NCBI GenBank assembly: GCA_043780835.1
Contig: JAYWCB010000013.1
Span: forward strand, 13,512-77,511
From: Minisyncoccota bacterium
Lineage (GTDB): Bacteria; Patescibacteriota; Minisyncoccia; Phycocordibacterales; UBA2100
Direction of reading: 5' to 3'
DNA: 64,000 bases
Shown here: positions 1,458 through 41,757 of the stretch, piece by piece
Numbering within the stretch: the stretch's first letter is position 1
Layout: each line of letters opens with the position of its first letter
Notes under the pieces: generated by a model
Told to the model about the DNA's origin: nothing
Seen by the model: the letters and a program-made list of their open reading frames with translations, nothing else
Database searches by the model: none
Position numbers and translations under genes: made by a program

Positions 1458-1970
1458 ATGACAGAGCAAAACATCTACCTTACCGGCTTCATGGGAGCGG
1501 GTAAATCGACCGTGGGTATCGCATTAGCAAAGCGACTCAACTATCAATTCATTGATCTTGATGAACATATTGAGTTTGTTAACAGGCGATCGATTAGCGA
1601 TATATTTAGTTCAGGCGGGGAGGAGGGCTTTCGATGTATTGAAACCCTCGAATTACAAAAACTATGCGGCTTGGATCGCACCGTGATTTCTACCGGCGGA
1701 GGTGCATTTTGTCAGGACGGGAATCGCGAATTGATGCTCCGTACCGGCCTCGTTGTGTGTATCGACGCTCCGCTTGATCTGATACGAAAGCGGCTCTCCG
1801 GCGACACGGAGAGACCCCTCCTGCAAAATCAGAAAGCGGGCGACTTGTATAAATTGTTCATGACTCGACAACCGCTGTACCGAAAAGCGCATCTCATCGT
1901 GAACGGGAGAAAGTCGGTGCTCGGGATCGTGAATGATATTCTCAGGTATCTCATTAAAACCGGAACGTGA
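1458..1970 (+). CDS. aroK: Shikimate kinase
   Basis: Walker A motif GFMGAGKSTVG near the N-terminus. Size (about 170 aa) is typical. GGGAGG RBS sits 6 nt upstream of the ATG at 1458. The listed ORF start at 1407 is probably an upstream extension. Confidence 0.85.
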   Translation: MTEQNIYLTGFMGAGKSTVGIALAKRLNYQFIDLDEHIEFVNRRSISDIFSSGGEEGFRCIETLELQKLCGLDRTVISTGGGAFCQDGNRELMLRTGLVVCIDAPLDLIRKRLSGDTERPLLQNQKAGDLYKLFMTRQPLYRKAHLIVNGRKSVLGIVNDILRYLIKTGT

Positions 1971-1992
1971 AAAAATAACCAGGTACTTTAAT

Positions 1993-2019
1993 CGACCGGA
2001 AACACCGGTCGATCTTTTA
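1993..2019 (+). terminator. Intrinsic terminator after aroK
   Basis: Stem tcgaccgg/ccggtcga followed by a T-run. Confidence 0.6.
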
Positions 2020-2020
2020 A

Positions 2021-2050
2021 TAAATAAAATACCGATCCTGAGGATCGGTA
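2021..2050 (-). terminator. Intrinsic terminator for the minus-strand gene 2075-2338
   Basis: Stem taccgatcc/ggatcggta, followed on the minus strand by a U-run (plus-strand aaataaaa). Confidence 0.55.
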
Positions 2051-2074
2051 TTTCAAAATGCGCAACGGGATTGA

Positions 2075-2338
2075 TTAGAATCCCCGAAAATCCGCAAGAA
2101 CATTTGTGGGATGACGCCCTTTCTCGACATCGCTCAAGGCTTGTTGGTATCGCGGGTCCTTTTCGTAGCCTGAACCCCAGAGCGCGACCATGGTCTCGTG
2201 ATGACGAGCTAGCCTGGAGCGCGCATCTTCTTCTGGTTGAGCGATATCTGTGTGAGACATTGACACCTCCGGAGTGAGCGACTTGGTTTTAGTCGAGATT
2301 CCCGGTTCGCGAACGAATCCGTATCCTTTGTGTGGCAT
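2075..2338 (-). CDS. Hypothetical small protein (87 aa)
   Basis: Clean ORF with an AGAGGG RBS about 9 nt upstream. Its own terminator lies downstream. N-terminus reads MPHKGYGFVREPG. No family confidently recognised. Confidence 0.5.
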   Translation of the reverse strand: MPHKGYGFVREPGISTKTKSLTPEVSMSHTDIAQPEEDARSRLARHHETMVALWGSGYEKDPRYQQALSDVEKGRHPTNVLADFRGF

Positions 2339-2473
2339 GTAAGAACCCTCTGTGATTGAAAGAGCGCGAGGTACGAAAGAACTGGCCGGATTGATGATCC
2401 GGAATCTGGTTCGAAGGTCTTCGAGCGAGATTCCGAGGCACTATCCGTTCTCCGATAGTCTTGCCGTAACAAA

Positions 2474-2525
2474 GAAGCCCCCGCTTGGGGCGGGGGCTTC
2501 TGGTGTTGTTTCGGTTTGTTTATTT
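2474..2525. terminator. GC-rich hairpin plus T-rich tail, terminator-like
   Basis: Stem gaagcccccgc/gcgggggcttc with a ttgg loop, followed by a T-rich tract. No annotated gene ends here. Confidence 0.4.
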
Positions 2526-2755
2526 CTGAACCGTTGCATACGCCAAAGCCCCCTGTTTCCAGAAGCTATAAAAGTATACAAATGCGATGACTGCTCGATT
2601 CATTACGATTGAGAGTACGCCTGTCTGAAATTCTGTCAAGATTTGATCACATAATTATTCTTGACAGGATGCGCGTCCGCAGTAGGCTTCGTTGAGTACT
2701 GTTGCGTAGCGTGCGTAAAGGACGGTAGAAGACTGCCATTACAAGGGAGATACCA

Positions 2756-3139
2756 ATGGCGCAAGTCAGACTAAAAGAAACGGACTACGAAGACGGCGAC
2801 ACATCAGTGATGCATGTCAGTGCAAGGCAAGGTACCGGTGACGAGCTCATGGGTCCGAGCGGTCGGCTCGCGTACATGTTACGTGGTCACTGGGTCGGTA
2901 TTCTCGGCGGGGAGCCTACGGGGGCACGAGGCTCGCGCCCAAGTCGTAAGCAGTACGCGCTCTTTATCGTGAGTCAGAAGAAAGGCGGCGGGTACGACGT
3001 TCATTTCAAAGAGGCACTCACGAAGAGCGAGGTTGAGCGCGAAGAGATTTCGAAGCGCCTGCATCATTCGCATGAATTACATTCATTCGTATTGCCGGTC
3101 ACTGTGCGGAATCAACGCTGCCAACTTATTACGCTCTAG
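2756..3139 (+). CDS. Hypothetical protein (127 aa)
   Basis: ORF with an AAGGGAG RBS. Followed by a terminator hairpin at 3164-3200. Confidence 0.5.
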   Translation: MAQVRLKETDYEDGDTSVMHVSARQGTGDELMGPSGRLAYMLRGHWVGILGGEPTGARGSRPSRKQYALFIVSQKKGGGYDVHFKEALTKSEVEREEISKRLHHSHELHSFVLPVTVRNQRCQLITL

Positions 3140-3163
3140 TCACTGCGACTAGAGCACACCTCA

Positions 3164-3200
3164 ACACCGGCGTGCAATGCATGCCGGTGTTTTGTTCTTT
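3164..3200 (+). terminator. Intrinsic terminator
   Basis: Stem caccggc...gccggtg followed by tttgttcttttt. Confidence 0.6.
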
Positions 3201-3280
3201 TTATTCTTGACCGCGTTCTGATCGGGCGTACTATTCCACAAGCAAAGACAGAGTGTCTTTCTAAGAAGAGGATATCGGTC

Positions 3281-3487
3281 ATGTCGAAAACACCGCATCA
3301 TCGCAAAGATGAGAGTGCCGTTGGCGTCACTGAAAATGCATCCGAACCGTTTGTGGACGGACAGGTCGCGCACGCGCCGTTTCCGGATCAGCGTGTTCGC
3401 GCAACGTTTGCGGCACCGCATCCGCGTAAACGTGACGTGAATCGGGACTTTGACGTTCTGCCTCGCGGACGTCTTGCAACGGATTAA
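3281..3487 (+). CDS. Hypothetical small protein (68 aa)
   Basis: AAGAGGA RBS 7 nt upstream. Followed by a terminator at 3511-3550. Confidence 0.4.
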   Translation: MSKTPHHRKDESAVGVTENASEPFVDGQVAHAPFPDQRVRATFAAPHPRKRDVNRDFDVLPRGRLATD

Positions 3488-3510
3488 TGACGGCATCGCA
3501 GATACGTAGA

Positions 3511-3550
3511 CCCCGGTACATAGTGCCGGGGGCTATTTTTTTATTTTACT
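3511..3550 (+). terminator. Intrinsic terminator
   Basis: Stem ccccggtac/gtgccgggg followed by a T-run. Confidence 0.6.
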
Positions 3551-3616
3551 TTTTCTGAAAATAATTTACACTCCATCGGTCGAGCAATCCGCTCGTCGCT
3601 ACGTAGGAGACTTCGA

Positions 3617-3772
3617 GTGAATCCGAATCAACAGAAGCCGCAGTCGCAGCACGATCAGGACCAGTCGCGTCAGGGTCAGCAGAATCAAGAAAGCGGCGGA
3701 CATCAACCCGGTCGCGATGAAAAATCGGGCAACAAGCGCCAGAATCAGAAGCCCGGCTCGAAGTCGAAATAA
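3617..3772 (+). CDS. Small Gln/Lys-rich low-complexity protein (51 aa, GTG start)
   Basis: Not in the ORF track (under 60 aa). A TAGGAGA RBS sits 7 nt before a GTG start. Translation VNPNQQKPQSQHDQDQSRQGQQNQESGGHQPGRDEKSGNKRQNQKPGSKSK. A strong terminator lies at 3801-3833. Confidence 0.35.
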   Translation: MNPNQQKPQSQHDQDQSRQGQQNQESGGHQPGRDEKSGNKRQNQKPGSKSK

Positions 3773-3800
3773 CCAACGGTCATTACGACCGAAGATCTTT

Positions 3801-3833
3801 AGTCCCGGCAGCTCGCTGCCGGGACTTTTGTTA
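3801..3833 (+). terminator. Intrinsic terminator
   Basis: 12-bp stem agtcccggcagc/gctgccgggact followed by ttttgtt. Confidence 0.65.
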
Positions 3834-4149
3834 TTAGAAGCGGCGCATTGACCGGTCATTGCCGAGGTTCACAATGGTGGAAGTGCCGCGCGGAGATCCG
3901 TGGAGAAAAGGCGCCAATGCCTAGCCCTGCCATCGGACCCAGTGAGGCGTCATGCCCTCAAATGGGATTTAAAAACAGCACGTGCAATCAATCGGGAGCA
4001 ATCTGCTCAAAGCCTCGGAAATTGGCGCGCCGCTTGTCGACGCGCCCTTTCATTGTAAAAGCCCTCCCTCAGGAGGCCTTCATCACGCTTACGATATACT
4101 GCCAAAACGGGCCTTTTGTGGCTTCAATCATGGTCTTTCGGCCTTGGGG

Positions 4150-4177
4150 TTGACTCTCATGGTTTAGCGCTTATAAT
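4150..4177 (+). promoter_or_regulatory. Sigma-70-like promoter (TTGACT, 16 nt spacer, TATAAT), candidate rRNA promoter
   Basis: Near-consensus -35 and -10 hexamers about 535 nt upstream of the 16S start. No protein gene lies between them. Confidence 0.4.
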
Positions 4178-4711
4178 GGCTCGACCATCGCTCCTGATGG
4201 CCTTTTATTTGGGGTCGGAATTGATTTTCTGATCAACGAATATGCCTGACTGCCACTCGGCACGACGGCCTTCAAACCGAAGAGGGCGGGATGTGGATGG
4301 CTGAACTTTGACATTTGAATAGACAAAGCATTTTGCATCGAATTCTGTAGCGGAATTCGGTGTGAGAAAAACAATCAATGTAAATTCACAAAGATTGGTA
4401 AGACTCGAATATCCAATAAGCCGGATGTTCGAGAAGCAATGCAACACACAAGCAAGCAAACAAAATACAACGTACTGCGAAGCCCTAGGAGAGTTTCGTA
4501 GTATATGAGGAATAGAAACAGTACTGATTACATTGATCCAAATGTAAATCAGGAAACAAAAAATCAGATTGAATCATGTTCTTCGAACATGCATAAATGT
4601 GCATTCTTTTGTTTCGTCCATCCTAAAAAAGAACTAAATCAAATTTGTAACAGAATTTCATGGCAGTGCACTCAAGGATCCGTCCACGTGCACACTATGT
4701 AATACATTCTT

Positions 4712-6169
<1,458 letters not shown>

Positions 6170-6254
6170 AAATTGGACGCTGAAACACCCGCGAGGGTGC
6201 GGTAAGCTAATAGGCGATTTGGGTATCTCGATCGAGTACCCAAGGGAAATGGCA

Positions 6255-6447: not shown

Positions 6448-6690
6448 ATGATTCAGGTACGTATTGTAAAGCGAAGCGAGAACCCGTCTCTGTTTTGGAG
6501 TTCTGTTTTTCAAGGGGCGTTTCTTGCTCTCTTGCCGGTACTGGGTTTTGCCGCATTTATCGGATATATCCTTCAGCTATCAACGCGGACCAATATTGTG
6601 TTCATCGCGGGCACGGGAATAATTGTATTCTTGGTAACAGCGTTCGCGCTTTCAAGGCGTGAGGTAATCCCCGAGATTGGCCTTGTATAA
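6448..6690 (+). CDS. Hypothetical small membrane protein (2 predicted TM)
   Basis: ORF with two hydrophobic segments. No clear RBS. Weak support. Confidence 0.3.
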   Translation: MIQVRIVKRSENPSLFWSSVFQGAFLALLPVLGFAAFIGYILQLSTRTNIVFIAGTGIIVFLVTAFALSRREVIPEIGLV

Positions 6691-6721
6691 GTCGCACAAA
6701 CATCCAAGTTTGTACCTACCC

Positions 6722-6790
6722 CCAAATGATGCCTGACGTACTGGGAAAGACCGGTAGTTTGGACGAAACAAAAGTGTAAATAAAAACACC
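6722..6790 (+). repeat. Noncoding repeat R2 (shorter copy of R1/R3)
   Basis: AAATGATGCCTGACGTACTGGGAAAGACCGGTAGTTTGGACGAAACAAAAGTGTAAATAAA. A terminator-like hairpin follows at 6785-6817 (aacaccc...gggtgttttttt). Confidence 0.65.
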
Positions 6791-6904
6791 CCAGAACAAT
6801 GACGGAGGGTGTTTTTTAGGTATGCCATAATTCATGGTATTTCGTCTGGTTTGATTCTCACGATGCCGCAGGTTTAACCTGCGGCATTTGGCGGTTACTT
6901 AGCA

Positions 6905-7456
6905 TTAACCGCCAAATTTCCACATTCCAAGCATAAATAAAGTCATGAGCACCGCGAATACAAGAATTCCAGACAATAGCACTTTTATAAGATTACTCAA
7001 CGCATTTTTCTTGCTTCCTGAAGCTGGGCCGGTCAAAGTATCGACACCGTTATTTTTAGCATATATATTTCTCAGCCCGACTTTCACCAGATACATGCCG
7101 AATCCAAGTAGAGCAAGGGGTCCGGCATAATCTATGTACGGTTTGTCCGACTGGCCCAATGACGTTCTCCATAGAACTAGCCCATAGAGTGCTAGAAGTG
7201 TACTAAGGCTTCCAAGAACTGTGTAAAGATATCCAGTGAAACGGCGTGAATGAGGTGTCATCTCACGGACCCCTATCCATGTGCACATGAGACCTGCCGG
7301 AATTCCTACAATCCAGAATAGTGTTTCTGTGCCTGCGAGCACAAGGTCACCAGACGAATAAAGAATGCCCACCGCGATGATGCAAAAGAGTGTAAAGAGA
7401 ATGCCGAATGCCCCAAGGGCAATACCTATGAGGGAGTAAAGAGGGTCTTTTCTCAT
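6905..7456 (-). CDS. Hypothetical integral membrane protein (about 183 aa)
   Basis: Multi-TM hydrophobic ORF. The likely start MRKDPLYSLIG overlaps the upstream gene's stop by 4 nt (ATGA). The listed ORF extends to 7615, probably an artefact. Confidence 0.5.
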   Translation of the reverse strand: MRKDPLYSLIGIALGAFGILFTLFCIIAVGILYSSGDLVLAGTETLFWIVGIPAGLMCTWIGVREMTPHSRRFTGYLYTVLGSLSTLLALYGLVLWRTSLGQSDKPYIDYAGPLALLGFGMYLVKVGLRNIYAKNNGVDTLTGPASGSKKNALSNLIKVLLSGILVFAVLMTLFMLGMWKFGG

Positions 7457-17624: not shown

Positions 17625-18245
17625 GTGCGTATCGAATGGTCGTCTCGGTTTGCGTACGCCATTGGTTTACTCGTCGCTGACGGATGTGTGCAAAAAGATG
17701 GGCGACACGTTGATCTAACCTCAGTCGATAAAGCTCAGGCTGAGTTATTTAGAAAATGTTTGGGATTAAAGACGAGTGTGAGTACGAAGCGATCGGGACA
17801 AGGGAATATCGCTTATTGTATGCAATTTAGTGATGTACTTTTCCATCAGTTTCTTATGGGAATCGGCATATTCCCAGCAAAGTCAAAGACAATAGGTGCC
17901 GTCGCGGTCCCCGAAGAGTTTTTCGTCGACTTTGTGCGCGGATATTTTGATGGTGATGGTAGTAGCTATTCCTATTACGATCCGATTTTTAAAAAGAGCT
18001 ATCGGTTTTATCTCTCGTTTACGTCTGCGAGTCCGGTGTTCATTGCTTGGTTTCGAGAGAGACTTCGGCAGTCGATAGGGGTGAAAGGGTACATCAGTCT
18101 CAATCGTAATAATCCCTACGTACAGTTGAAGTACTCGAAACGAGAGGCGGTTCGAATATGTGTCTATATGTACCACGCGAAGGACGTGCCCTGTCTTGTT
18201 CGCAAACGATTGAAAATTATGAAATCTATGCGCATAATCGCCTGA
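17625..18245 (+). CDS. LAGLIDADG-family homing endonuclease (single chain, two motifs)
   Basis: Two dodecapeptide motifs, FAYAIGLLVADGCV and FVRGYFDGDGSS, in a 206-aa ORF. GTG start with an AAGGGG RBS. It is free-standing, not inside any gene or intron visible here. Confidence 0.75.
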   Translation: MRIEWSSRFAYAIGLLVADGCVQKDGRHVDLTSVDKAQAELFRKCLGLKTSVSTKRSGQGNIAYCMQFSDVLFHQFLMGIGIFPAKSKTIGAVAVPEEFFVDFVRGYFDGDGSSYSYYDPIFKKSYRFYLSFTSASPVFIAWFRERLRQSIGVKGYISLNRNNPYVQLKYSKREAVRICVYMYHAKDVPCLVRKRLKIMKSMRIIA

Positions 18246-18246
18246 C

Positions 18247-18330
18247 GCCGCGGTGGTGAAATTGGTAGACACGCTAGCTTCAGAAGCTAGTTCTCGGAAG
18301 GGATTGGGAGTTCGAGTCTCCCTCGCGGCA
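18247..18330 (+). tRNA. tRNA-Leu (anticodon CAG)
   Basis: Acceptor GCCGCGG/TCGCGGC, D-arm gtg/cac, anticodon stem gctag/ctagc with loop ttCAGaa, long variable arm (type II tRNA), T-arm gggag ttcgagt ctccc. The gene is uninterrupted. It starts 2 nt after the endonuclease stop. Confidence 0.8.
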
Positions 18331-18427
18331 CATTAATGCAATGCATGTACATCGACGTACATTCCGTCTGGCGTGGTATTACGGACCGGATGTTCTATCT
18401 CCCTAAAAATGCACTATACTGACAATC

Positions 18428-32214: not shown

Positions 32215-32439
32215 ATGACACTCGATTCTTTGATCATGCTGTGTGGAGCGCTCGTGGCAATTCTGCCGTTTCTCGGATTTCCGAATAGCTGGGATGCGGT
32301 CATTCTTTTGATACTTGGCGTGATAGTGATTTCACTCGGAATTGTGGTGCGGCGACGTTCGCCGCGTCGTGCCATGCATGAGCGCGATTCCATATTTGTA
32401 GAAAATTCTCCAAAACAAGACGACTCGCATGAGTCGTAA
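32215..32439 (+). CDS. Hypothetical small membrane protein (2 TM)
   Basis: ATG at 32215 (MTLDSLIMLCGALVAIL...). Two hydrophobic helices. The listed ORF starts at a TTG at 32161. Confidence 0.35.
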   Translation: MTLDSLIMLCGALVAILPFLGFPNSWDAVILLILGVIVISLGIVVRRRSPRRAMHERDSIFVENSPKQDDSHES

Positions 32440-33541
32440 GGCGGAGCACGCGGAACGTTTTAGCCCGATGGTACTCGGTGCGATAACCGGTTTTGCAATC
32501 GTCGTTATCGTTATCGGTGTTTCGACGACTTTCTTTTTTAGCGCATCACCAATTTCGTTTTCGCGGACTGCAACCTCAACGCCACCGGTGAAGATCGACA
32601 CACGACCCGTACTTAATACGCATGCCTACGATGTAAAACTACTTTCGATGGCGCATATCGCAACATCCAGTCCGTACTACGGTCGATTTTTAAAGAACGA
32701 TTTCGGTACGTCATCTCGACCTACGTGGCCAGTGAAAACTGCATATCCGAAAGCGGGCGCGCTCCTGCCGTTTAATCGAATCGTCGCATATTACGGCAAT
32801 TTTTATTCCAAGGGCATGGGTGTGCTCGGCGAATATCCTGAAGATGTAATGCTTGCAAAGCTCCATACCGAATCCTCTCGATGGGAAGCGGCAGATCCCG
32901 CAACGCCAGTTATTCCGGCCATCCACTACATTGTAGAAACCGCACAAAGTTCTGCCGGGAAAGAAGGGCTCTACCTTGCACGTATGCCTGATAGTCAAAT
33001 CGATAAAGCGCTCGCAATAGCCGACAAAATCCATGGCATCGTGTTTATAGATTTCCAGGTCTCGCTGAGTTCCTTGCAAAAAGAGCTGCCCATGTACGAG
33101 GAGTATTTGAAAAAGCCGAATGTGCACCTTGGTATCGATCCCGAGTTCTCGATGAAAACCCGCGTTGCTCCCGGGCGTGAGATCGGTTCATTTGACGCAG
33201 CGGATATCAATTATGCGATTGATTTTTTGGCCAAACTCGTAAAAGACAACGATCTGCCGCCGAAAATCCTCGTGGTACATCGCTTTACACTGGATATGGT
33301 CACGAATTACAAACGCATTAAAACGGTCCCAGAAGTACAGTTTGTAATGGATATGGACGGTTGGGGATCAACCGCCAAGAAAAACGGCACATACCAACGC
33401 GTTATTGTTCCGGAACCGGTGCAGTTTACCGGCTTCAAACTGTTTTATAAAAACGATCTATTTGCACCATCGACAGGAATATTTACTCCTGCGGAGCTCC
33501 TCAAGATGACGCCGCAGCCGATGTACATTCAGTATCAATAA
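32429..33541 (+). CDS. Hypothetical membrane-anchored protein (N-terminal TM, about 340-aa extracytoplasmic domain, possibly glycoside-hydrolase-like)
   Basis: N-terminal hydrophobic helix followed by a soluble domain. Family uncertain. Confidence 0.5.
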   Translation: MSRKAEHAERFSPMVLGAITGFAIVVIVIGVSTTFFFSASPISFSRTATSTPPVKIDTRPVLNTHAYDVKLLSMAHIATSSPYYGRFLKNDFGTSSRPTWPVKTAYPKAGALLPFNRIVAYYGNFYSKGMGVLGEYPEDVMLAKLHTESSRWEAADPATPVIPAIHYIVETAQSSAGKEGLYLARMPDSQIDKALAIADKIHGIVFIDFQVSLSSLQKELPMYEEYLKKPNVHLGIDPEFSMKTRVAPGREIGSFDAADINYAIDFLAKLVKDNDLPPKILVVHRFTLDMVTNYKRIKTVPEVQFVMDMDGWGSTAKKNGTYQRVIVPEPVQFTGFKLFYKNDLFAPSTGIFTPAELLKMTPQPMYIQYQ

Positions 33542-33580: not shown

Positions 33581-35749
33581 ATGGCGGATCACTCACACCA
33601 CGACGAGCACGATCACGGCGCAGCAAAGCCGGTGCACATGGATCATGCAAACGATGATCGCCGCATTACGTATTTTGCCGCAACGCACACACGCGGAAAG
33701 CGCGACATGTTTGGCATTCGGGCAATTGATCGCGGAAAACATATTTACGTTATCGGTAAAACCGGTATGGGTAAATCCACCATGCTTGAGAACATGGCTA
33801 TTCAGGATATCCAAAACGGCGAAGGAATCGCATTTATCGATCCGCACGGATCGACTGCCGAAAAACTGCTCGATTTCATTCCGCAGGAGCGCATCAATGA
33901 CGTTGTGTATCTTGCACCGTTCGATACGGACTATCCGATGGGATTCAACGTCATGGAGGACGTGGGATACGACAAGCGGCATCTCATTGTGTCGGGATTG
34001 ATGGGTGCATTCGAGCGCATTTGGGAAGATCAGTGGAGTGCTCGTATGGCATACATTCTGCAGAATGTAATGCTCGCGCTTTTGGAATATCCAGACTCAT
34101 CGCTCCTCGATGTAAACCGCATGCTCACCAACAAAACGTTTCGCGAAGCGGTTATTGAAAAAGTAACCGATCCGATCGTGAAAGCATTTTGGACAGAGGA
34201 GTTTGCAAGCTTTACGGATCGTTACACCGCAGAGGCAACGCCTGCAATTCAAAACAAAATCGGTCAGTTCATCGCAAATCCGCTCATTCGACACATCGTC
34301 GGACAATCGACGTCGTCATTTGATCTTCGTAAGATCATGGATGAGAAAAAGATTTTTATCGTGAACTTATCGAAAGGCCGCATGGGCGAAACCAATGCAG
34401 CGCTTCTCGGCTCCATGCTCACGGTGAAAATTTATCTCGCGGCCATGTCGCGCGCAGATGAGCCGGCATCGCGAATGGCAAAATTGCCGCGCTTCTATTT
34501 CTACGTCGATGAATTCCAGTCGATGATGAATAAGGCATTTGCCGATATTCTCTCTGAATCCCGAAAATATAAACTCGCCCTTACGCTTGCTAACCAATAT
34601 ATAGAGCAAATGGATGAAGAGGTGCGAGACGCGGTGTTTGGCAACGTAGGCACGTTAATCGTGTTTCGTGTAGGTCCGTTCGATGCGGAAGTGCTCGAGA
34701 CTGTATTCCAACCGACCTTTTTACCGGAAGACTTAGTCGGACTTGGTATCGGACAAATTTATCTCACACTGATGATCGATGGTGTGGGTAGTCCGCCGTT
34801 TTCAGCGGAAACAATTCCGCCGATCGAAGCGCCGTCGATTTCATATCGCAACGATGTAGTTATGGCGTCGCGCGCGCATTATAGTCGCAGTCGCGAGGAA
34901 GTCGTCGCAGAAATCAACCGAAAGCAGACTGAATTTGTGGCACCTCCGAAAGAAAAGAAAGGCGAGCGACGTGATGCGCCTCGTTCATCCAACGGATGGA
35001 ACGCGGCACCCCAAGGTGGTACCACGCCACGAGAAAAGTTCGCCGCGGCAGCACCGGCAAGCGCATCGCTCAGCATGCCACTACAGAGCCCGCCTCCGCA
35101 GAGCTCCTTGAGCGAAAAGATACAGCAAATACAACACGCTCCGCGTCCTGTACAACAATACGCGCGTCCTGCGGACAGAGCACCGGAACGTGCCGGACAT
35201 GTAAACCCGATGGCCGTGCGCCAAACCCCGCAAACGCCGCGACCATTTAATCTGCAGTCCAAGCGTGAGGCTGAGGGGAACGTGCACCGGAACGCTTTGA
35301 AAGACGCAATCGAAAAAGCGAAGGGCGAAAAGCAGATTCGCGAATCTGCGCCGGGAACACCTGCCAAATCGCCGCTCGAACTCATTCGCGAAAAAAACGC
35401 ATCCAAAATGCAACAACACCGGCCGCATGATTCGCAGTCGCCGCGTCACAACCCGCCGGCGCAACACGAGCAAAAACAACGCGACTGGGAACCCGCACAT
35501 TCTGCTCACGTGAGAAAACCGGATACTCAAACCGCGCCAGTCGAAACAAAAATCCCAGAAAAGTCTGCCGAAACCATTCGCGAGCGTCCCGTATCGGAAG
35601 TGAAGCCTGAACAACAGCAAGCGCAAAATCAAACGCAAACGGGCAACAGATCAAATTCATATACGCCCGAGGCTCATCACGGAGAAGTCTCGCATCGTGA
35701 ATTGCAACGAGTACTCAACGGTTCCGACCGCGACTCGGATGATCTATGA
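33581..35749 (+). CDS. P-loop NTPase of the VirD4/TraG/TraD (type IV coupling protein, HerA/FtsK-like) type, with an about 280-aa disordered Q/P/R/E-rich C-terminal tail
   Basis: Walker A GKTGMGKST. Walker B-like FYFYVDEFQSM. LALTLANQ sensor. Sequence is collinear with TraG/VirD4-like ATPases. No N-terminal TM. Residues from about 440 onward are low-complexity. Confidence 0.65.
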   Translation: MADHSHHDEHDHGAAKPVHMDHANDDRRITYFAATHTRGKRDMFGIRAIDRGKHIYVIGKTGMGKSTMLENMAIQDIQNGEGIAFIDPHGSTAEKLLDFIPQERINDVVYLAPFDTDYPMGFNVMEDVGYDKRHLIVSGLMGAFERIWEDQWSARMAYILQNVMLALLEYPDSSLLDVNRMLTNKTFREAVIEKVTDPIVKAFWTEEFASFTDRYTAEATPAIQNKIGQFIANPLIRHIVGQSTSSFDLRKIMDEKKIFIVNLSKGRMGETNAALLGSMLTVKIYLAAMSRADEPASRMAKLPRFYFYVDEFQSMMNKAFADILSESRKYKLALTLANQYIEQMDEEVRDAVFGNVGTLIVFRVGPFDAEVLETVFQPTFLPEDLVGLGIGQIYLTLMIDGVGSPPFSAETIPPIEAPSISYRNDVVMASRAHYSRSREEVVAEINRKQTEFVAPPKEKKGERRDAPRSSNGWNAAPQGGTTPREKFAAAAPASASLSMPLQSPPPQSSLSEKIQQIQHAPRPVQQYARPADRAPERAGHVNPMAVRQTPQTPRPFNLQSKREAEGNVHRNALKDAIEKAKGEKQIRESAPGTPAKSPLELIREKNASKMQQHRPHDSQSPRHNPPAQHEQKQRDWEPAHSAHVRKPDTQTAPVETKIPEKSAETIRERPVSEVKPEQQQAQNQTQTGNRSNSYTPEAHHGEVSHRELQRVLNGSDRDSDDL

Positions 35750-36465
35750 GTCTTGAGCGTCCAGATCCGATGCGATCGTCGATTCGTCCTGCGTCGACGA
35801 GGAATCTCAATAAAATTGGTGCGAACCCACGCGGGCACGGCATATACAAGGATACAGAGGGTCGTATATATCACGAAATCAAAGGATATCCAGCAGACCA
35901 GATGCTTGTCTCCCGAATGCTAAAAGGAATAGTTAATGTGTGCGATGTTATTTATAACAAGGATCGCGACCTCTACATGTCGAATCAAGTCGACATGAAT
36001 ACGGTGGCGCCACAAGACCCTGGGCAGGTGTATGCGCAGGCCAAGGCCGACGAGGATATTCTCATGTTCATTTTTAATGATGCTGATCACGGAAGCAGTA
36101 ACTATGTGGTATCCGAATTTGCATATGTTTTACACGACTTCGGGAACGTGGGTTCGCATTTTTGGAAGAGAGGGGAAGATATGAACGCAACTGTAGTTGC
36201 GGCAATGAATCTCGGTAGTGAGCGTGATGCGTTGCGTGTACGCGTAGAAAAGCTATCAACGCGCTTTTCCGGTGATGAGGGATACAAATTTATCAATGCA
36301 ATAGTTTTAGAAATCAAAGAAAGTGGAGCTGAAACACCAAGTATTCTACGTTTCGCCTCAGATTCCTCTGATCCCGTGCGTGCTTTTCAGGCTCAATTAT
36401 TGCAGCGTCTAGATAATATAAGTTCGGCGATTGCAGCGTATGAACAAACTATTCACAGTGACTAA
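35746..36465 (+). CDS. Hypothetical protein (239 aa), translationally coupled to the upstream ATPase
   Basis: Start overlaps the ATPase stop (ATGA). No recognisable domain. Confidence 0.5.
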   Translation: MSLERPDPMRSSIRPASTRNLNKIGANPRGHGIYKDTEGRIYHEIKGYPADQMLVSRMLKGIVNVCDVIYNKDRDLYMSNQVDMNTVAPQDPGQVYAQAKADEDILMFIFNDADHGSSNYVVSEFAYVLHDFGNVGSHFWKRGEDMNATVVAAMNLGSERDALRVRVEKLSTRFSGDEGYKFINAIVLEIKESGAETPSILRFASDSSDPVRAFQAQLLQRLDNISSAIAAYEQTIHSD

Positions 36466-37315
36466 AACATCGGCACTTCTGTTCATATGTGCATTGTCGC
36501 TACCCGCGACGGCGGGCGCTGCTATTCGTATCACGGAAATCATGTATGACCCGGACGGCGCCGATGCGAAGCATGAATGGGTGGAGATATATAACACAGG
36601 TAGCGACGCAGTGGATCTTTCGAAATATAAATTCTCGGACACATCGGCACATGTATTGAATGCACCGCCAAAAAACGGCGGAACAGGATCCCTTGTGATT
36701 CCCGCGGGGAGCTTTGCGGTCCTTGCGTCTGATGCTGCGACATTCTCGCTCGAGTATCCCGGCAGAGCCCTAGTTATCGACACCGCCATGAATTTGAGAA
36801 ATTCTGGATCAACCATCCTACTGACGAACGGCACAACTCTGGTGGATAGTGCGACATATGCAAAATCTGAGGGGGCAGCGGGAAACGGCAATTCACTCCA
36901 GTTGAATGGAACTACATGGATTCATGCGAAACCGACACCGGGCGAAGCGAATGCCACTCTGCCGTCAGTGACTATTGCGCCGATTGTGGCGTCCAAGACT
37001 GTGAAGATACAGAAAGCGCAGAAAGTACAGAAAGTACAGAAACTCCAGGCCGAGCCGAAGCAAAAGTTGTCGCAAAAGAAAAGCCGACAAAAGAAACCCA
37101 TAGCAATCTCCGAAGCAGAGGCCGCGGCGAATGATCCGGTCGCGGTCGTAAATGTAACGTCGACAGAAGTAGTCGCGCAAACTGCAGCAGCAGGATCCCT
37201 TGGCGGCTCGTACTGGTGGATCGCCGCAGCCGCACTTGCGATCACGGTTGCTGCGACCGCAACGATTATGTCCCGATCCAAAAAACAGGAATGGGATATT
37301 GAGGAAATCGAGTAG
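36440..37315 (+). CDS. Surface lamin-tail-domain (LTD) protein with a signal peptide, a Lys-rich KxQK repeat segment and a C-terminal TM anchor
   Basis: LTD signature (ITEIMYDPDGADAKHEWVEIYNTGSDAVDLSKYKF). N-terminal signal peptide (MNKLFTVTKTSALLFICALSLPATAGA). KIQKAQKVQKVQKLQAEPKQKLSQKKSRQKK segment. C-terminal hydrophobic helix YWWIAAAALAITVAATATIM. Confidence 0.7.
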   Translation: MNKLFTVTKTSALLFICALSLPATAGAAIRITEIMYDPDGADAKHEWVEIYNTGSDAVDLSKYKFSDTSAHVLNAPPKNGGTGSLVIPAGSFAVLASDAATFSLEYPGRALVIDTAMNLRNSGSTILLTNGTTLVDSATYAKSEGAAGNGNSLQLNGTTWIHAKPTPGEANATLPSVTIAPIVASKTVKIQKAQKVQKVQKLQAEPKQKLSQKKSRQKKPIAISEAEAAANDPVAVVNVTSTEVVAQTAAAGSLGGSYWWIAAAALAITVAATATIMSRSKKQEWDIEEIE

Positions 37316-38229: not shown

Positions 38230-38270
38230 GCAAAAAATGGTATAAGCCTCACAGAAGATAGGGGGATTTC

Positions 38271-38717
38271 ATGGCCAATTCCTGGCTCTCACAGTCGTTT
38301 ATCGCAGTTATCTTGCTGACACCGCCATGGCTCGCCATGCCGTTTTTCAGCAAGAATTTCGGAGTATCCGGAAGCGTGTTCGCAGTCTGGTACTTTCTCG
38401 GTGCAGCGCTCTCAATCGGGCTTGTACAGGGATCGGTTGCGTTTAAACCGTCCGTCGGCGTCATCGCAGGCATCGTCGCAATTGGAATTGTATTCGGCGG
38501 CGTCGCAAACAGCACGCTTTTTAGTGCGGTAAACGCGGCACCGAATCCGGGCATTCCGATAGCGATCAGCACGGTTTCGAGTCTCACGACATTCATTGCT
38601 GCGGTTGCACTGTTTCGGCTCATGCCGGAATATTTCGCACCCGCAGCACTTGATTGGAAATCATTCGCCGGAGCGATACTCATTATCGCCGGCGCCACAC
38701 TCATCTCAGCGAAATGA
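38271..38717 (+). CDS. Small 4-TM EamA/SMR-like transporter (ArnE/ArnF-like candidate lipid-linked sugar flippase subunit)
   Basis: 148 aa with four hydrophobic helices. Sits in a glycan cluster context. Confidence 0.6.
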   Translation: MANSWLSQSFIAVILLTPPWLAMPFFSKNFGVSGSVFAVWYFLGAALSIGLVQGSVAFKPSVGVIAGIVAIGIVFGGVANSTLFSAVNAAPNPGIPIAISTVSSLTTFIAAVALFRLMPEYFAPAALDWKSFAGAILIIAGATLISAK

Positions 38718-39461: not shown

Positions 39462-39500
39462 ATCAGCAGCGCGGGAGCAATCCCGCGCTGCTTTCTTTTT
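39462..39500 (+). terminator. Intrinsic terminator
   Basis: Stem cagcagcgcggg..cccgcgctgctt followed by tctttttg. Confidence 0.6.
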
Positions 39501-41391: not shown

Positions 41392-41472
41392 CCCTCAGTG
41401 CTGACCTGAACCTTTTTTGATGGCGTGCTACATCTCGTAGCGCGCCATCATGCTTTGCGCTATGGTGACCTC

Positions 41473-41757
41473 ATGAATCCCGTTAGAGATTCTGACAATT
41501 GGTACACCTATGTTTTGCGTAGTAAAAAGGACCAGAAATGGTATACAGGGTTCACGCACGATCTTCGGAAGCGCTTCAAAGAGCATAGCGATGGTCAGAG
41601 CGTGTCAACAAAAAACCGTGGCCCATTTGAGCTCATATATTATGAAATGTGTCGGAATGAAACAGATGCAAGGTCGAGAGAATTATTTCTTAAATCGGGA
41701 ATGGGCAAGCGTTTCCTCAAAACTCGTATGAAGCGCTTCCTATCTCTAACGGGATGA
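41473..41757 (+). CDS. GIY-YIG nuclease-family small protein (UPF0213/YhbQ-like)
   Basis: WYTYVLRS...WYTGFTHDLRKRFKEHSDG...FELIYYEMCRNETDARSRELFLK matches the GIY-YIG core. The N-terminal MNPVRD and C-terminal SLTG residues are encoded by the inverted-repeat arms. The stop overlaps the next gene's ATG (ATGA). Confidence 0.75.
   Translation: MNPVRDSDNWYTYVLRSKKDQKWYTGFTHDLRKRFKEHSDGQSVSTKNRGPFELIYYEMCRNETDARSRELFLKSGMGKRFLKTRMKRFLSLTG
41476..41753 (+). repeat. Hairpin-forming inverted-repeat element, copy 2 (arms ATCCCGTTAGAGAT / ATCTCTAACGGGAT) carrying a GIY-YIG ORF
   Basis: 14-bp perfect IR. Flanking direct ATGAA at 41473 and 41754. The loop region equals the GIY-YIG coding sequence. Confidence 0.7.

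Follow-up and report, generated by a model that had tools for sequence, protein, structure and literature searches.

The three co-oriented genes at positions 33,581 to 37,315 of a 64,000-nucleotide stretch of DNA from a Minisyncoccota bacterium (contig JAYWCB010000013.1; the whole stretch is referred to as the window) raise the question of whether a P-loop ATPase, a small protein of 239 amino acids (p239) and an exported protein with a lamin-tail domain (LTD) work together, and for what. A first-pass annotation had described them as one module for DNA uptake, secretion or the handling of surface polymers. Its account of the layout was correct: all three open reading frames (ORFs) were found on the plus strand at the positions given (Table 1), and they are tightly packed, with the ATPase stop codon and the p239 start codon sharing an ATGA (35746-35749; 4 nt overlap) and the LTD gene, read from the ATG at 36440, overlapping the 3′ end of the p239 gene by 26 nt. 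Its expectation that the trio is conserved as a neighbourhood failed on comparison with related loci. The locus very probably represents a conserved two-gene pair, shared by Candidatus Kaiserbacteria and Paceibacteria related to them, of an ATPase and an anchored surface protein, between which p239 sits as a guest.

The distribution of p239 separates it from its neighbours. It lies between the ATPase and the partner in only three of approximately 100 related loci. In a tblastn search of 80 related genome loci (numbered with the prefix L), p239 was detected in a single one (L050; 26% identity, same position), and none of the five closest genomes (L001-L005), with ATPases 92-96% identical to the one in the window, contains it. 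Among 22 metagenomic loci containing a p239 homologue, one (L083) repeats the order ATPase-p239-LTD and 21 are without ATPase/LTD context; on long contigs, the homologues are located in unrelated housekeeping operons or other contexts. Since these contexts are sporadic and other guests occur at the same junction, we conclude that p239 is a real gene of a sporadic kinase-like family so far without annotation, which resides in an insertion hotspot and is not a component of the pair.

The second member of the pair is the gene that follows the ATPase in the related loci. It is co-oriented and often lies within a few nt of the ATPase gene or overlaps it. Its product begins with a signal peptide and a head that varies, continues in most cases with a PKD domain and a second, degenerate LTD, and has, after a linker, a C-terminal end of the form WW, transmembrane (TM) helix, basic residues and …EW[D/N]I[I/V/E]EE. 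A six-frame regular-expression search found the tail motif a single time per related locus, without exception in the gene that follows the ATPase, and a single time in the 64-kb window. When the pattern was relaxed slightly (TM helix plus [WF]xI[IVE]E), the motif was present in 51 of the 61 loci with at least 2 kb of downstream sequence; four further loci carry a truncated or variant partner and six have no partner gene. By our own estimate, the pattern is expected by chance in about 0.3% of proteins. Positions that the pattern left unconstrained are also biased, the residue before the W being E in 43 of 52 sequences and the one after it D or N in 40 of 52. A general sorting signal of the sortase/exosortase type was considered for this C-terminal anchor and rejected, because the motif occurs only once per locus and once in the window; also, no NCBIfam sorting-domain match was obtained.

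In contrast to the tail, the head of the partner is exchangeable between genomes (LTD, ComEA-type HHH_3 or another, Ig-like domain), and the protein evolves fast (median identity 34%). Of the 65 loci with 1 kb or more of sequence downstream, about 48 have an LTD after the ATPase according to a hidden Markov model of the LTD region, when over-extended ORF starts were allowed for, and in the loci without LTD match the body and the C-terminal end of the partner are still the same. The 51 tail-bearing loci comprise 41 with an LTD head, four with a ComEA-type HHH_3 head and six with a beta-rich domain without family match. HHH_3 (PF12836; E = 4e-21 and 1e-21) takes the place of the LTD in L043, L060, L067 and L071. 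A search with the HHH_3 form yielded 460 homologues, the best 120 of which comprised about 45 with HHH_3 and PKD, about 45 with LTD and PKD and about 30 with PKD only; several of the HHH_3+PKD homologues were named ComEA by JGI. In L103 and L104, the HHH_3 form directly follows a PF10412 ATPase in the same synteny, while the contigs of L105 and L106 start just upstream of the HHH_3 gene. The idea of a connection with DNA at the surface of the cell, already part of the first-pass annotation, thereby gains support from positional orthologues (e.g. L060, L067) with a ComEA-type head. These orthologues resemble ComEA in that they expose an HHH_3 domain outside the cell. They differ from it in their architecture (signal peptide, head, optional PKD and second LTD, TM helix, acidic tail) with its C-terminal anchor and in the linkage of the gene to a T4CP-like (type IV coupling protein-like) ATPase rather than to comEC or comF, and the head of the window protein itself is an LTD.

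In the window protein, the LTD was identified by Pfam (PF00932; 67.8 bits against a cut-off of 34.3) at aa 23-141, following a signal peptide (aa 1-27) and preceding a basic stalk (aa 186-219) and a TM helix (aa ~258-277). Hydropathy analysis revealed two hydrophobic segments, at aa ~10-30 and ~258-277, so that export and C-terminal anchoring are as first annotated. The ATG at 36440 is most likely the start codon, since it results in a classic signal peptide (MNKLF...ATAGA/A). The 14-residue cytoplasmic tail has the sequence SRSKKQEWDIEEIE. No HHH_3 domain was found by Pfam in the window protein, which has the LTD only. Of the histone-like KxQK stretch described earlier, the Lys-rich segment is real (composition in Table 1), while only two exact K.QK units are present; since the closest orthologues have no such stalk, it is a feature of this lineage. 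The sole NCBIfam match of the protein is ExeM. With ExeM of Shewanella and the haloarchaeal proteins Hlac_1867 and Hvo_1477, it has the signal peptide, the LTD and the C-terminal hydrophobic anchor in common, and those proteins are associated with the metabolism of extracellular DNA (PMC6085458, PMC5118699). Unlike them, it carries no nuclease, metallo-beta-lactamase or phosphoesterase domain and would be a binding or scaffold module only.

The ATPase exceeds the curated Pfam cut-offs of three coupling-protein families, namely PF10412 (TrwB_AAD_bind; 40.6 vs 20.5 bits), PF02534 (T4SS-DNA_transf; 24.3 vs 20.1 bits) and PF12696 (TraG-D_C; 23.2 vs 22 bits). Its DUF87/HerA score (19.9 bits) is below the cut-off of 23.2, and no FtsK_SpoIIIE match was reported at E ≤ 0.01. 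The best match in the PDB is TrwB (E = 7e-4 with the single sequence, 3.4e-4 with a family profile), followed by DotL, and the PDB sequence matches include no chain of FtsK, HerA or VirB4. The NCBIfam equivalog cut-offs for TraD and CD1115-type VirD4 were not reached (33-44 bits against 250-647). As judged from these matches, the ATPase is a remote member of the VirD4/TrwB/TraG coupling-protein superfamily and not an FtsK/HerA-like protein, in agreement with the TraG/VirD4 assignment of the first-pass annotation. A full-length AlphaFold2 (AF2) model built with 42 close homologues (pLDDT 55) was discarded, as Foldseek gave meaningless matches for it, such as MenB.

The protein consists of a motor (aa ~25-445), which contains both predicted Walker motifs (aa 59-67 and 305-312, the latter listed with one more residue in Table 1), and a tail of 277 aa (~446-722) rich in P/A/Q/R/E/S. 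A membrane anchor is missing, as had been noted: no TM segment was found, the highest Kyte-Doolittle mean of any 19-residue segment being 1.47 and none reaching 1.6, and the homologues likewise begin 20-25 aa upstream of the motor. The tail had been called long and disordered, which its composition and the low confidence of the predicted model support; it is not featureless, since it varies in length and sequence among the orthologues, yet retains two short motifs (Table 1). The terminal one has the consensus GEVSxExLxxVLxG and a helix predicted with low confidence at aa 705-712. With the T4CPs TrwB of R388, VirD4 and TraG/TraD, the ATPase shares the P-loop motor with Walker A and B. Its match to the TrwB_AAD_bind profile (positions 16-310 of 387) extends over the nucleotide-binding part and the all-alpha part, and with helices predicted at aa 132-240 an all-alpha insertion in the nucleotide-binding domain may be present. 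Its C-terminal tail, which is variable, recalls the tails with which TraD and DotL bind adaptors, and distant relatives adjoin relaxase-like genes. Unlike these T4CPs, it lacks the N-terminal TM domain that is typical, though not universal, for the group, and it is encoded by a single-copy chromosomal locus without relaxase or VirB4/VirB6 nearby, is vertically inherited and is far more conserved than T4CPs of mobile elements; the similarity to TrwB is remote and the TraD and VirD4 cut-offs were failed.

More than 8000 homologues of the ATPase were found, the best 120 of which show 85-100% identity; they come from metagenome-assembled genomes of Candidatus Kaiserbacteria and Paceibacteria (Patescibacteria, candidate phyla radiation (CPR)). 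Across 67 loci at the Kaiserbacteria level, the median identity was 84% for the ATPase motor, 68% for RsmI, 64% for MurC, 62% for the epimerase, 56% for the GT4 glycosyltransferase and 34% for the LTD protein, and in seven more distant loci it was 69% for the motor and 41% for MurC. On these sequence comparisons, the ATPase is a chromosomal, vertically inherited gene, as strongly conserved as housekeeping genes of the core genome. An IMG/VR element carries a relative of 29% identity in a canonical conjugative context, its neighbours being a relaxase-like gene (Replic_Relax), ArdC and another DUF87/TraG-D_C ATPase. The closest plasmid relative is a 39%-identical TM-less orphan of 395 aa between transposases on the Sulfitobacter plasmid L109 (NZ_CP081110.1, 6980-8167), and relatives of 27-28% identity, e.g. 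L110 (CP025942.1, 5644-7734), belong to 322 Bacillus plasmid records with DUF87/ATPase annotation, mostly typed as non-mobilizable; these plasmid relatives gave no functional context as a guide to the role of the ATPase.

In the 80 related loci, inspection of the neighbours within ±8 kb showed no linkage to a relaxase or a VirB4-type type IV secretion system (T4SS). In the window, a Pfam scan of about 60 ORFs, which included very small ORFs only partly, found no member of the VirB4, VirB6, pilin, relaxase or ComEC families, confirming the first-pass annotation on this point. An ATPase of this class is not uncharted. A survey (Quinonero-Coronel et al. 2025, PMC12102498) lists 5,713 VirD4-type T4CP homologues in 2,918 of 3,035 Patescibacteria genomes (~96%), about two per genome, of which only 148 lie near virB4; their function is described as open, with exaptation "not ruled out". 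The ATPase in the window appears to belong to these orphan T4CP homologues, sharing with them the rarity of virB4 in the vicinity and a possible exaptation. Passages of the survey retrieved by keyword mention no downstream anchor protein, tail motif, LTD/HHH_3 swap or extreme conservation, and the word 'lamin' is missing from its text.

Whether the two conserved genes act together is a question on which we are almost evenly divided, leaning slightly towards the negative. In favour of a functional unit are the co-orientation, the minimal spacing, the persistence over deep divergence and the conserved tail on a fast-evolving exported protein that is encoded beside an anchor-less motor. In the reading of such a unit that we favour, the head and the basic stalk of the surface protein would capture extracellular DNA or another polyanionic ligand, its short cytoplasmic tail would recruit the soluble, presumably hexameric ATPase to the membrane, and the ATPase would spend ATP to engage or pump DNA, or would pass the substrate to a channel whose genes lie in another part of the genome (ComEC or a VirB4-type T4SS). 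DNA as ligand is suggested by the swap between LTD and HHH_3, the association of LTDs with nucleases and ComEC-like proteins, ExeM as the only NCBIfam match and the DNA-handling ancestry of T4CPs; prokaryotic LTDs accompany extracellular nucleases and ComEC-like proteins (PMC6085458, PMC5118699). A precedent for the tethering step comes from pIP501, for which the membrane protein TraI has been suggested as the anchor of the TM-less Gram-positive T4CP TraJ (PMC12857230). There, too, a soluble coupling-type ATPase needs a separate membrane tether, and the system is of the monoderm type, like the T4SS lineage of Patescibacteria. TraI is a small protein with two TM helices, while the tether considered here would be a large protein exported to the surface, with a binding head outside the cell and one C-terminal TM helix; moreover, no T4SS genes are adjacent to the pair, and the interaction between tail and ATPase is inferred. 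Taken in all its steps, this mechanism of DNA capture and tethering is doubtful.

Several observations weigh against a joint function of ATPase and partner. The six partner-less loci keep the ATPase at 82-89% identity together with its C-terminal motif, and the slot is filled, in one of the six or more, by an ORF on the minus strand that is transposase-like by eye only. Comparison of the ATPase C-terminal motif with the partner tail gave no signal supporting co-variation; the motif persists in the partner-less genomes. A larger block, murC-rsmI-...-ATPase-partner-epimerase-GT4, is syntenic even at 67-71% ATPase identity, and the adjacency of ATPase and partner is therefore not independent proof of a functional link. 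The junction between the two genes also tolerates unrelated guests (Y1 transposase, PaaX/Cas2-like, CYTH and p239). Concerning the ligand, ExeM without its LTD still degrades DNA (PMC6085458), and DNA binding is only a presumed role of LTDs. Finally, no gene for a channel, relaxase, pilin or ComEC was found among the ORFs scanned in the window, and the T4CP homologue of S. epibionticum is not essential (PMC12102498).

Some of the same observations fit the main rival explanation, a different role of the ATPase, namely that of the coupling protein of a distant chromosomal VirB4-type (MPF-FATA-like) T4SS, such as most Patescibacteria possess, encoded near dnaA in Paceibacteria, with protein or DNA substrates possibly recruited through its disordered tail and the partner being an independent, fast-evolving adhesin or receptor of extracellular DNA held in place by synteny. 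We regard both this assignment and its recruitment step as possible, if on the unlikely side. The T4CP-family membership seen in Pfam and PDB agrees with it, as do the retention of ATPase sequence and C-terminal motif where the partner was lost, the synteny of the entire block including the unrelated murC and rsmI, and the short tail motifs, which would fit a role in adaptor or substrate recruitment; VirB4 occurs in 2,417 of the 3,035 genomes of Patescibacteria, with T4CP genes commonly far from virB4 (PMC12102498). Such a coupling protein would have neither a TM helix nor a known tether, however, and the partner with its conserved cytoplasmic tail is the only conserved membrane protein beside it. 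Furthermore, the T4SS of S. epibionticum was described without a recognisable coupling protein (PMC10633639), and PMC12102498 reports this T4SS as essential but the distant T4CP homologue as dispensable, and relaxases as nearly absent from the phylum.

The remaining explanations are far less probable. A housekeeping DNA translocase or remodeller like FtsK or HerA, acting in segregation, division or repair, would suit a gene that is more conserved than MurC and RsmI, is vertically inherited and is located just downstream of murD, a racemase gene, murC and rsmI, which would represent a division or cell-wall context, and weak DUF87/HerA similarity as well as matches to HerA/mad8 profiles were obtained. 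We nevertheless consider it improbable, given that the T4CP families score above their cut-offs and DUF87 below its own, that FtsK_SpoIIIE is unmatched, that the PDB matches include neither FtsK nor HerA chains, that the protein has no TM helix and no DNA-recognition (gamma) domain, and that its relatives on plasmids and mobile elements are of the conjugation type. The original proposal of one dedicated system for DNA uptake, secretion or surface polymers, with p239 as an integral subunit, draws on the tight packing with its overlaps of 4 and 26 nt and on the recurrence of the gene order in L050 and L083; it is very improbable in view of the absence of p239 from L001-L005 and from 79 of the 80 genome loci, the occurrence of 21 of 22 metagenomic homologues in other surroundings (uvr and atp operons, others) and the transposases and other guests at the same junction in sister genomes. 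We give the least credit of all, next to none, to an anti-phage defence module of the MADS type consisting of a mad8-type ATPase and a kinase. The PADLOC mad8 profile does match the ATPase (E = 1.5e-15), and MADS operons include a kinase (bioRxiv 10.1101/2023.03.30.534895), which would correspond to the kinase-like fold of p239. But p239 has no PADLOC match, neither a methylase, a specificity subunit nor another mad gene was found among the scanned ORFs of the window, the ATPase is a vertically inherited core gene and not an island gene, and the MADS profiles derive from generic HHpred alignments, as the methods of that preprint state. The conserved pair with a guest remains our favoured description of the locus.

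The guest itself belongs to a diverse family. A word-indexed search with p239 returned only the query, and an exhaustive search yielded 116 family representatives of ~250 aa with at best 33-34% identity. No Pfam, NCBIfam or PADLOC match and no significant PDB sequence match were obtained for p239, and the family profile retrieved only noise from the PDB sequences (Lon and botulinum toxin, with E-values of 0.01 or above). The family alignment shows conservation of LKGIxPVSDV, of FxDxDHxxxxN, with D112 and N119, and of an aspartate, D131, within HDFG (aa 130-133; family consensus FDF); among 30 family sequences, D112 and N119 are conserved to at least 90% and D131 is invariant. The AF2 model is of high confidence (pLDDT 90, pTM 0.89), and the top 50 Foldseek matches in the PDB consist almost entirely of kinases and aminoglycoside/antibiotic phosphotransferases, the highest probability being 0.99. 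The best TM-scores were 0.46 for HipA, 0.45 for PI4KIII alpha and 0.42 for PI4KIII beta, at E-values of only 1e-3 to 1e-2. According to this model, p239 has a bilobal protein-kinase-like fold. With HipA and PI3-PI4-kinase-like minimal kinases, it shares this fold and motifs resembling the catalytic loop (DxDHxxxxN) and the metal-binding D-F; D112, N119 and D131 were likened to kinase catalytic residues by this resemblance of motifs, not by residue-level superposition. It differs from them by its size of only ~240 aa, TM-scores not above 0.46 and the lack of an antitoxin-like neighbour.

In other Patescibacteria, members of the p239 family were observed within uvrB-histidine kinase-response regulator-p239-uvrA-uvrC (L091 7001-7765 and relatives), between the response regulator gene and uvrA, and within atpA-p239-atpG-atpD-atpC (L096 5094-5912, L098, L102). 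L085 is another case of a housekeeping operon, and L093 has two copies. The cases examined adjoin the gene of a P-loop NTPase (atpA, uvrA or the T4CP-like ATPase). In a protein of 4,612 aa (P0123), 15 separate stretches match p239 residues ~136-226, the helical C-lobe, which suggests that a portion of the fold also occurs as a module repeated in tandem. At the ATPase/partner junction of the related genomes, IS200-like Y1 transposases occur in both orientations (minus strand in L001, ~2900-3650, and L003, ~6600-7430; also in L010 and L034), and further guests are a CYTH gene in L010 and a PaaX/Cas2-like gene in L008 (L010 9656-11000; L034 5239-5946; L008 9937-10515).

Table 1. Genes, sequence motifs and other features of the ATPase-p239-LTD locus (positions in the window).
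Feature	Position	Strand	Remarks
ATPase gene, 722 aa	33581-35749	+	soluble (TM-less) P-loop ATPase resembling VirD4/TrwB-type coupling proteins
Walker A, GKTGMGKST, aa 59-67	33755-33781	+	invariant among aligned homologues
Walker B, FYFYVDEFQ, aa 305-313	34493-34519	+	D310 and E311 invariant among aligned homologues
Short motif of ATPase tail, SPLELIREK (consensus RSPADILRE[KR])	35369-35395	+	alignment consensus; tails of 70 loci
C-terminal motif of ATPase, GEVSHRELQRVLNG, followed by acidic residues	35681-35722	+	retained at the C-terminus by almost every orthologue, although the linkers vary
p239 gene, 239 aa	35746-36465	+	small protein with predicted protein-kinase-like fold; guest gene
LTD gene, 291 aa from ATG	36440-37315	+	type I surface protein; TTG start at 36431 also open
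Lys/Gln-rich stalk, aa 186-219	36995-37096	+	34 aa with 12 K and 8 Q; specific to this lineage
C-terminal anchor: YWW, TM helix, basic residues, EWDIEE (37289-37306)	37211-37312	+	conserved among loci
Terminator-like hairpin, 12-bp stem	39465-39492	+	consensus scan only; first strong one downstream on this strand

The window is ordinary chromosome. Upstream it contains SecDF, shikimate-pathway genes, a lone 16S rRNA gene and genes for ribonucleotide reductase and glutamate dehydrogenase; murD, a racemase gene, murC, a NUDIX gene and rsmI directly precede the locus, and a glycan-synthesis cluster of ~25 kb (epimerases, GT4/GT2 glycosyltransferases, flippase, PMT_2 and rmlA-like genes) follows it. 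The terminator-like hairpin is possibly the end of a transcription unit ATPase-p239-LTD-epimerase-DUF218 gene. A promoter scan gave fewer sites than shuffled controls and none on the plus strand, and thus carries no information in this phylum. The ATPase gene is closely preceded by one for an N-terminally anchored protein of 370 aa without family match (32429-33541), whose slot holds a DUF4015 protein in L103 and L104. As a fourth component it was rejected, being present in only ~17 of 80 loci and showing no significant similarity to the DUF4015 protein.

Some further observations were made in the window. Directly 5′ of the 16S rRNA gene (4711-6171), a region of ~2.7 kb (1970-4711) has no ORF above 127 aa and no credible Rfam match, an unusually long gap for a streamlined CPR genome; the window has no 23S gene. 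An ORF resembling LAGLIDADG_3 homing endonucleases (17625-18245) stops 2 nt ahead of tRNA-Leu(CAG) (18247-18331), and a small ORF of 110 aa with a GIY-YIG nuclease domain (41425-41757) lies inside the glycan-biosynthesis cluster. Between the epimerase and DUF218 genes (38249-38717), two ORFs without family match, 148 aa on the plus and 151 aa on the minus strand, overlap on opposite strands; the homologous stretch of L025 matches both frames, so that either strand may be coding.

The class of the ATPase is known, as it is that of the orphan T4CPs described in 2025 (PMC12102498), while a limited literature search found no mention of the partner, of its tail motif, of the exchange of heads or of a conservation at housekeeping level. 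The locus also defines a kinase-like family of small proteins lacking annotation and lodged in housekeeping operons, and it corrects the idea of a three-gene system. It may further be that the pair belongs to an undescribed envelope machine of Paceibacteria, in which a receptor of extracellular DNA with LTD or ComEA-type helix-hairpin-helix heads docks an exapted TM-less conjugative coupling ATPase via its acidic tail. We consider this unlikely; if true, a conjugation-type motor would be used "in reverse context", for the acquisition of DNA or the scavenging of nucleotides in organisms unable to make nucleotides, and this would explain the near-universal, strongly conserved orphan T4CP genes of Patescibacteria. 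The role of these VirD4-like genes, about two per genome and nearly all far from any T4SS, was explicitly left open in 2025 (PMC12102498). For one such orphan ATPase, the locus offers a concrete and testable proposal, tail-mediated tethering combined with DNA capture, which bears on how nucleotide-auxotrophic epibionts may obtain DNA or communicate with their hosts.

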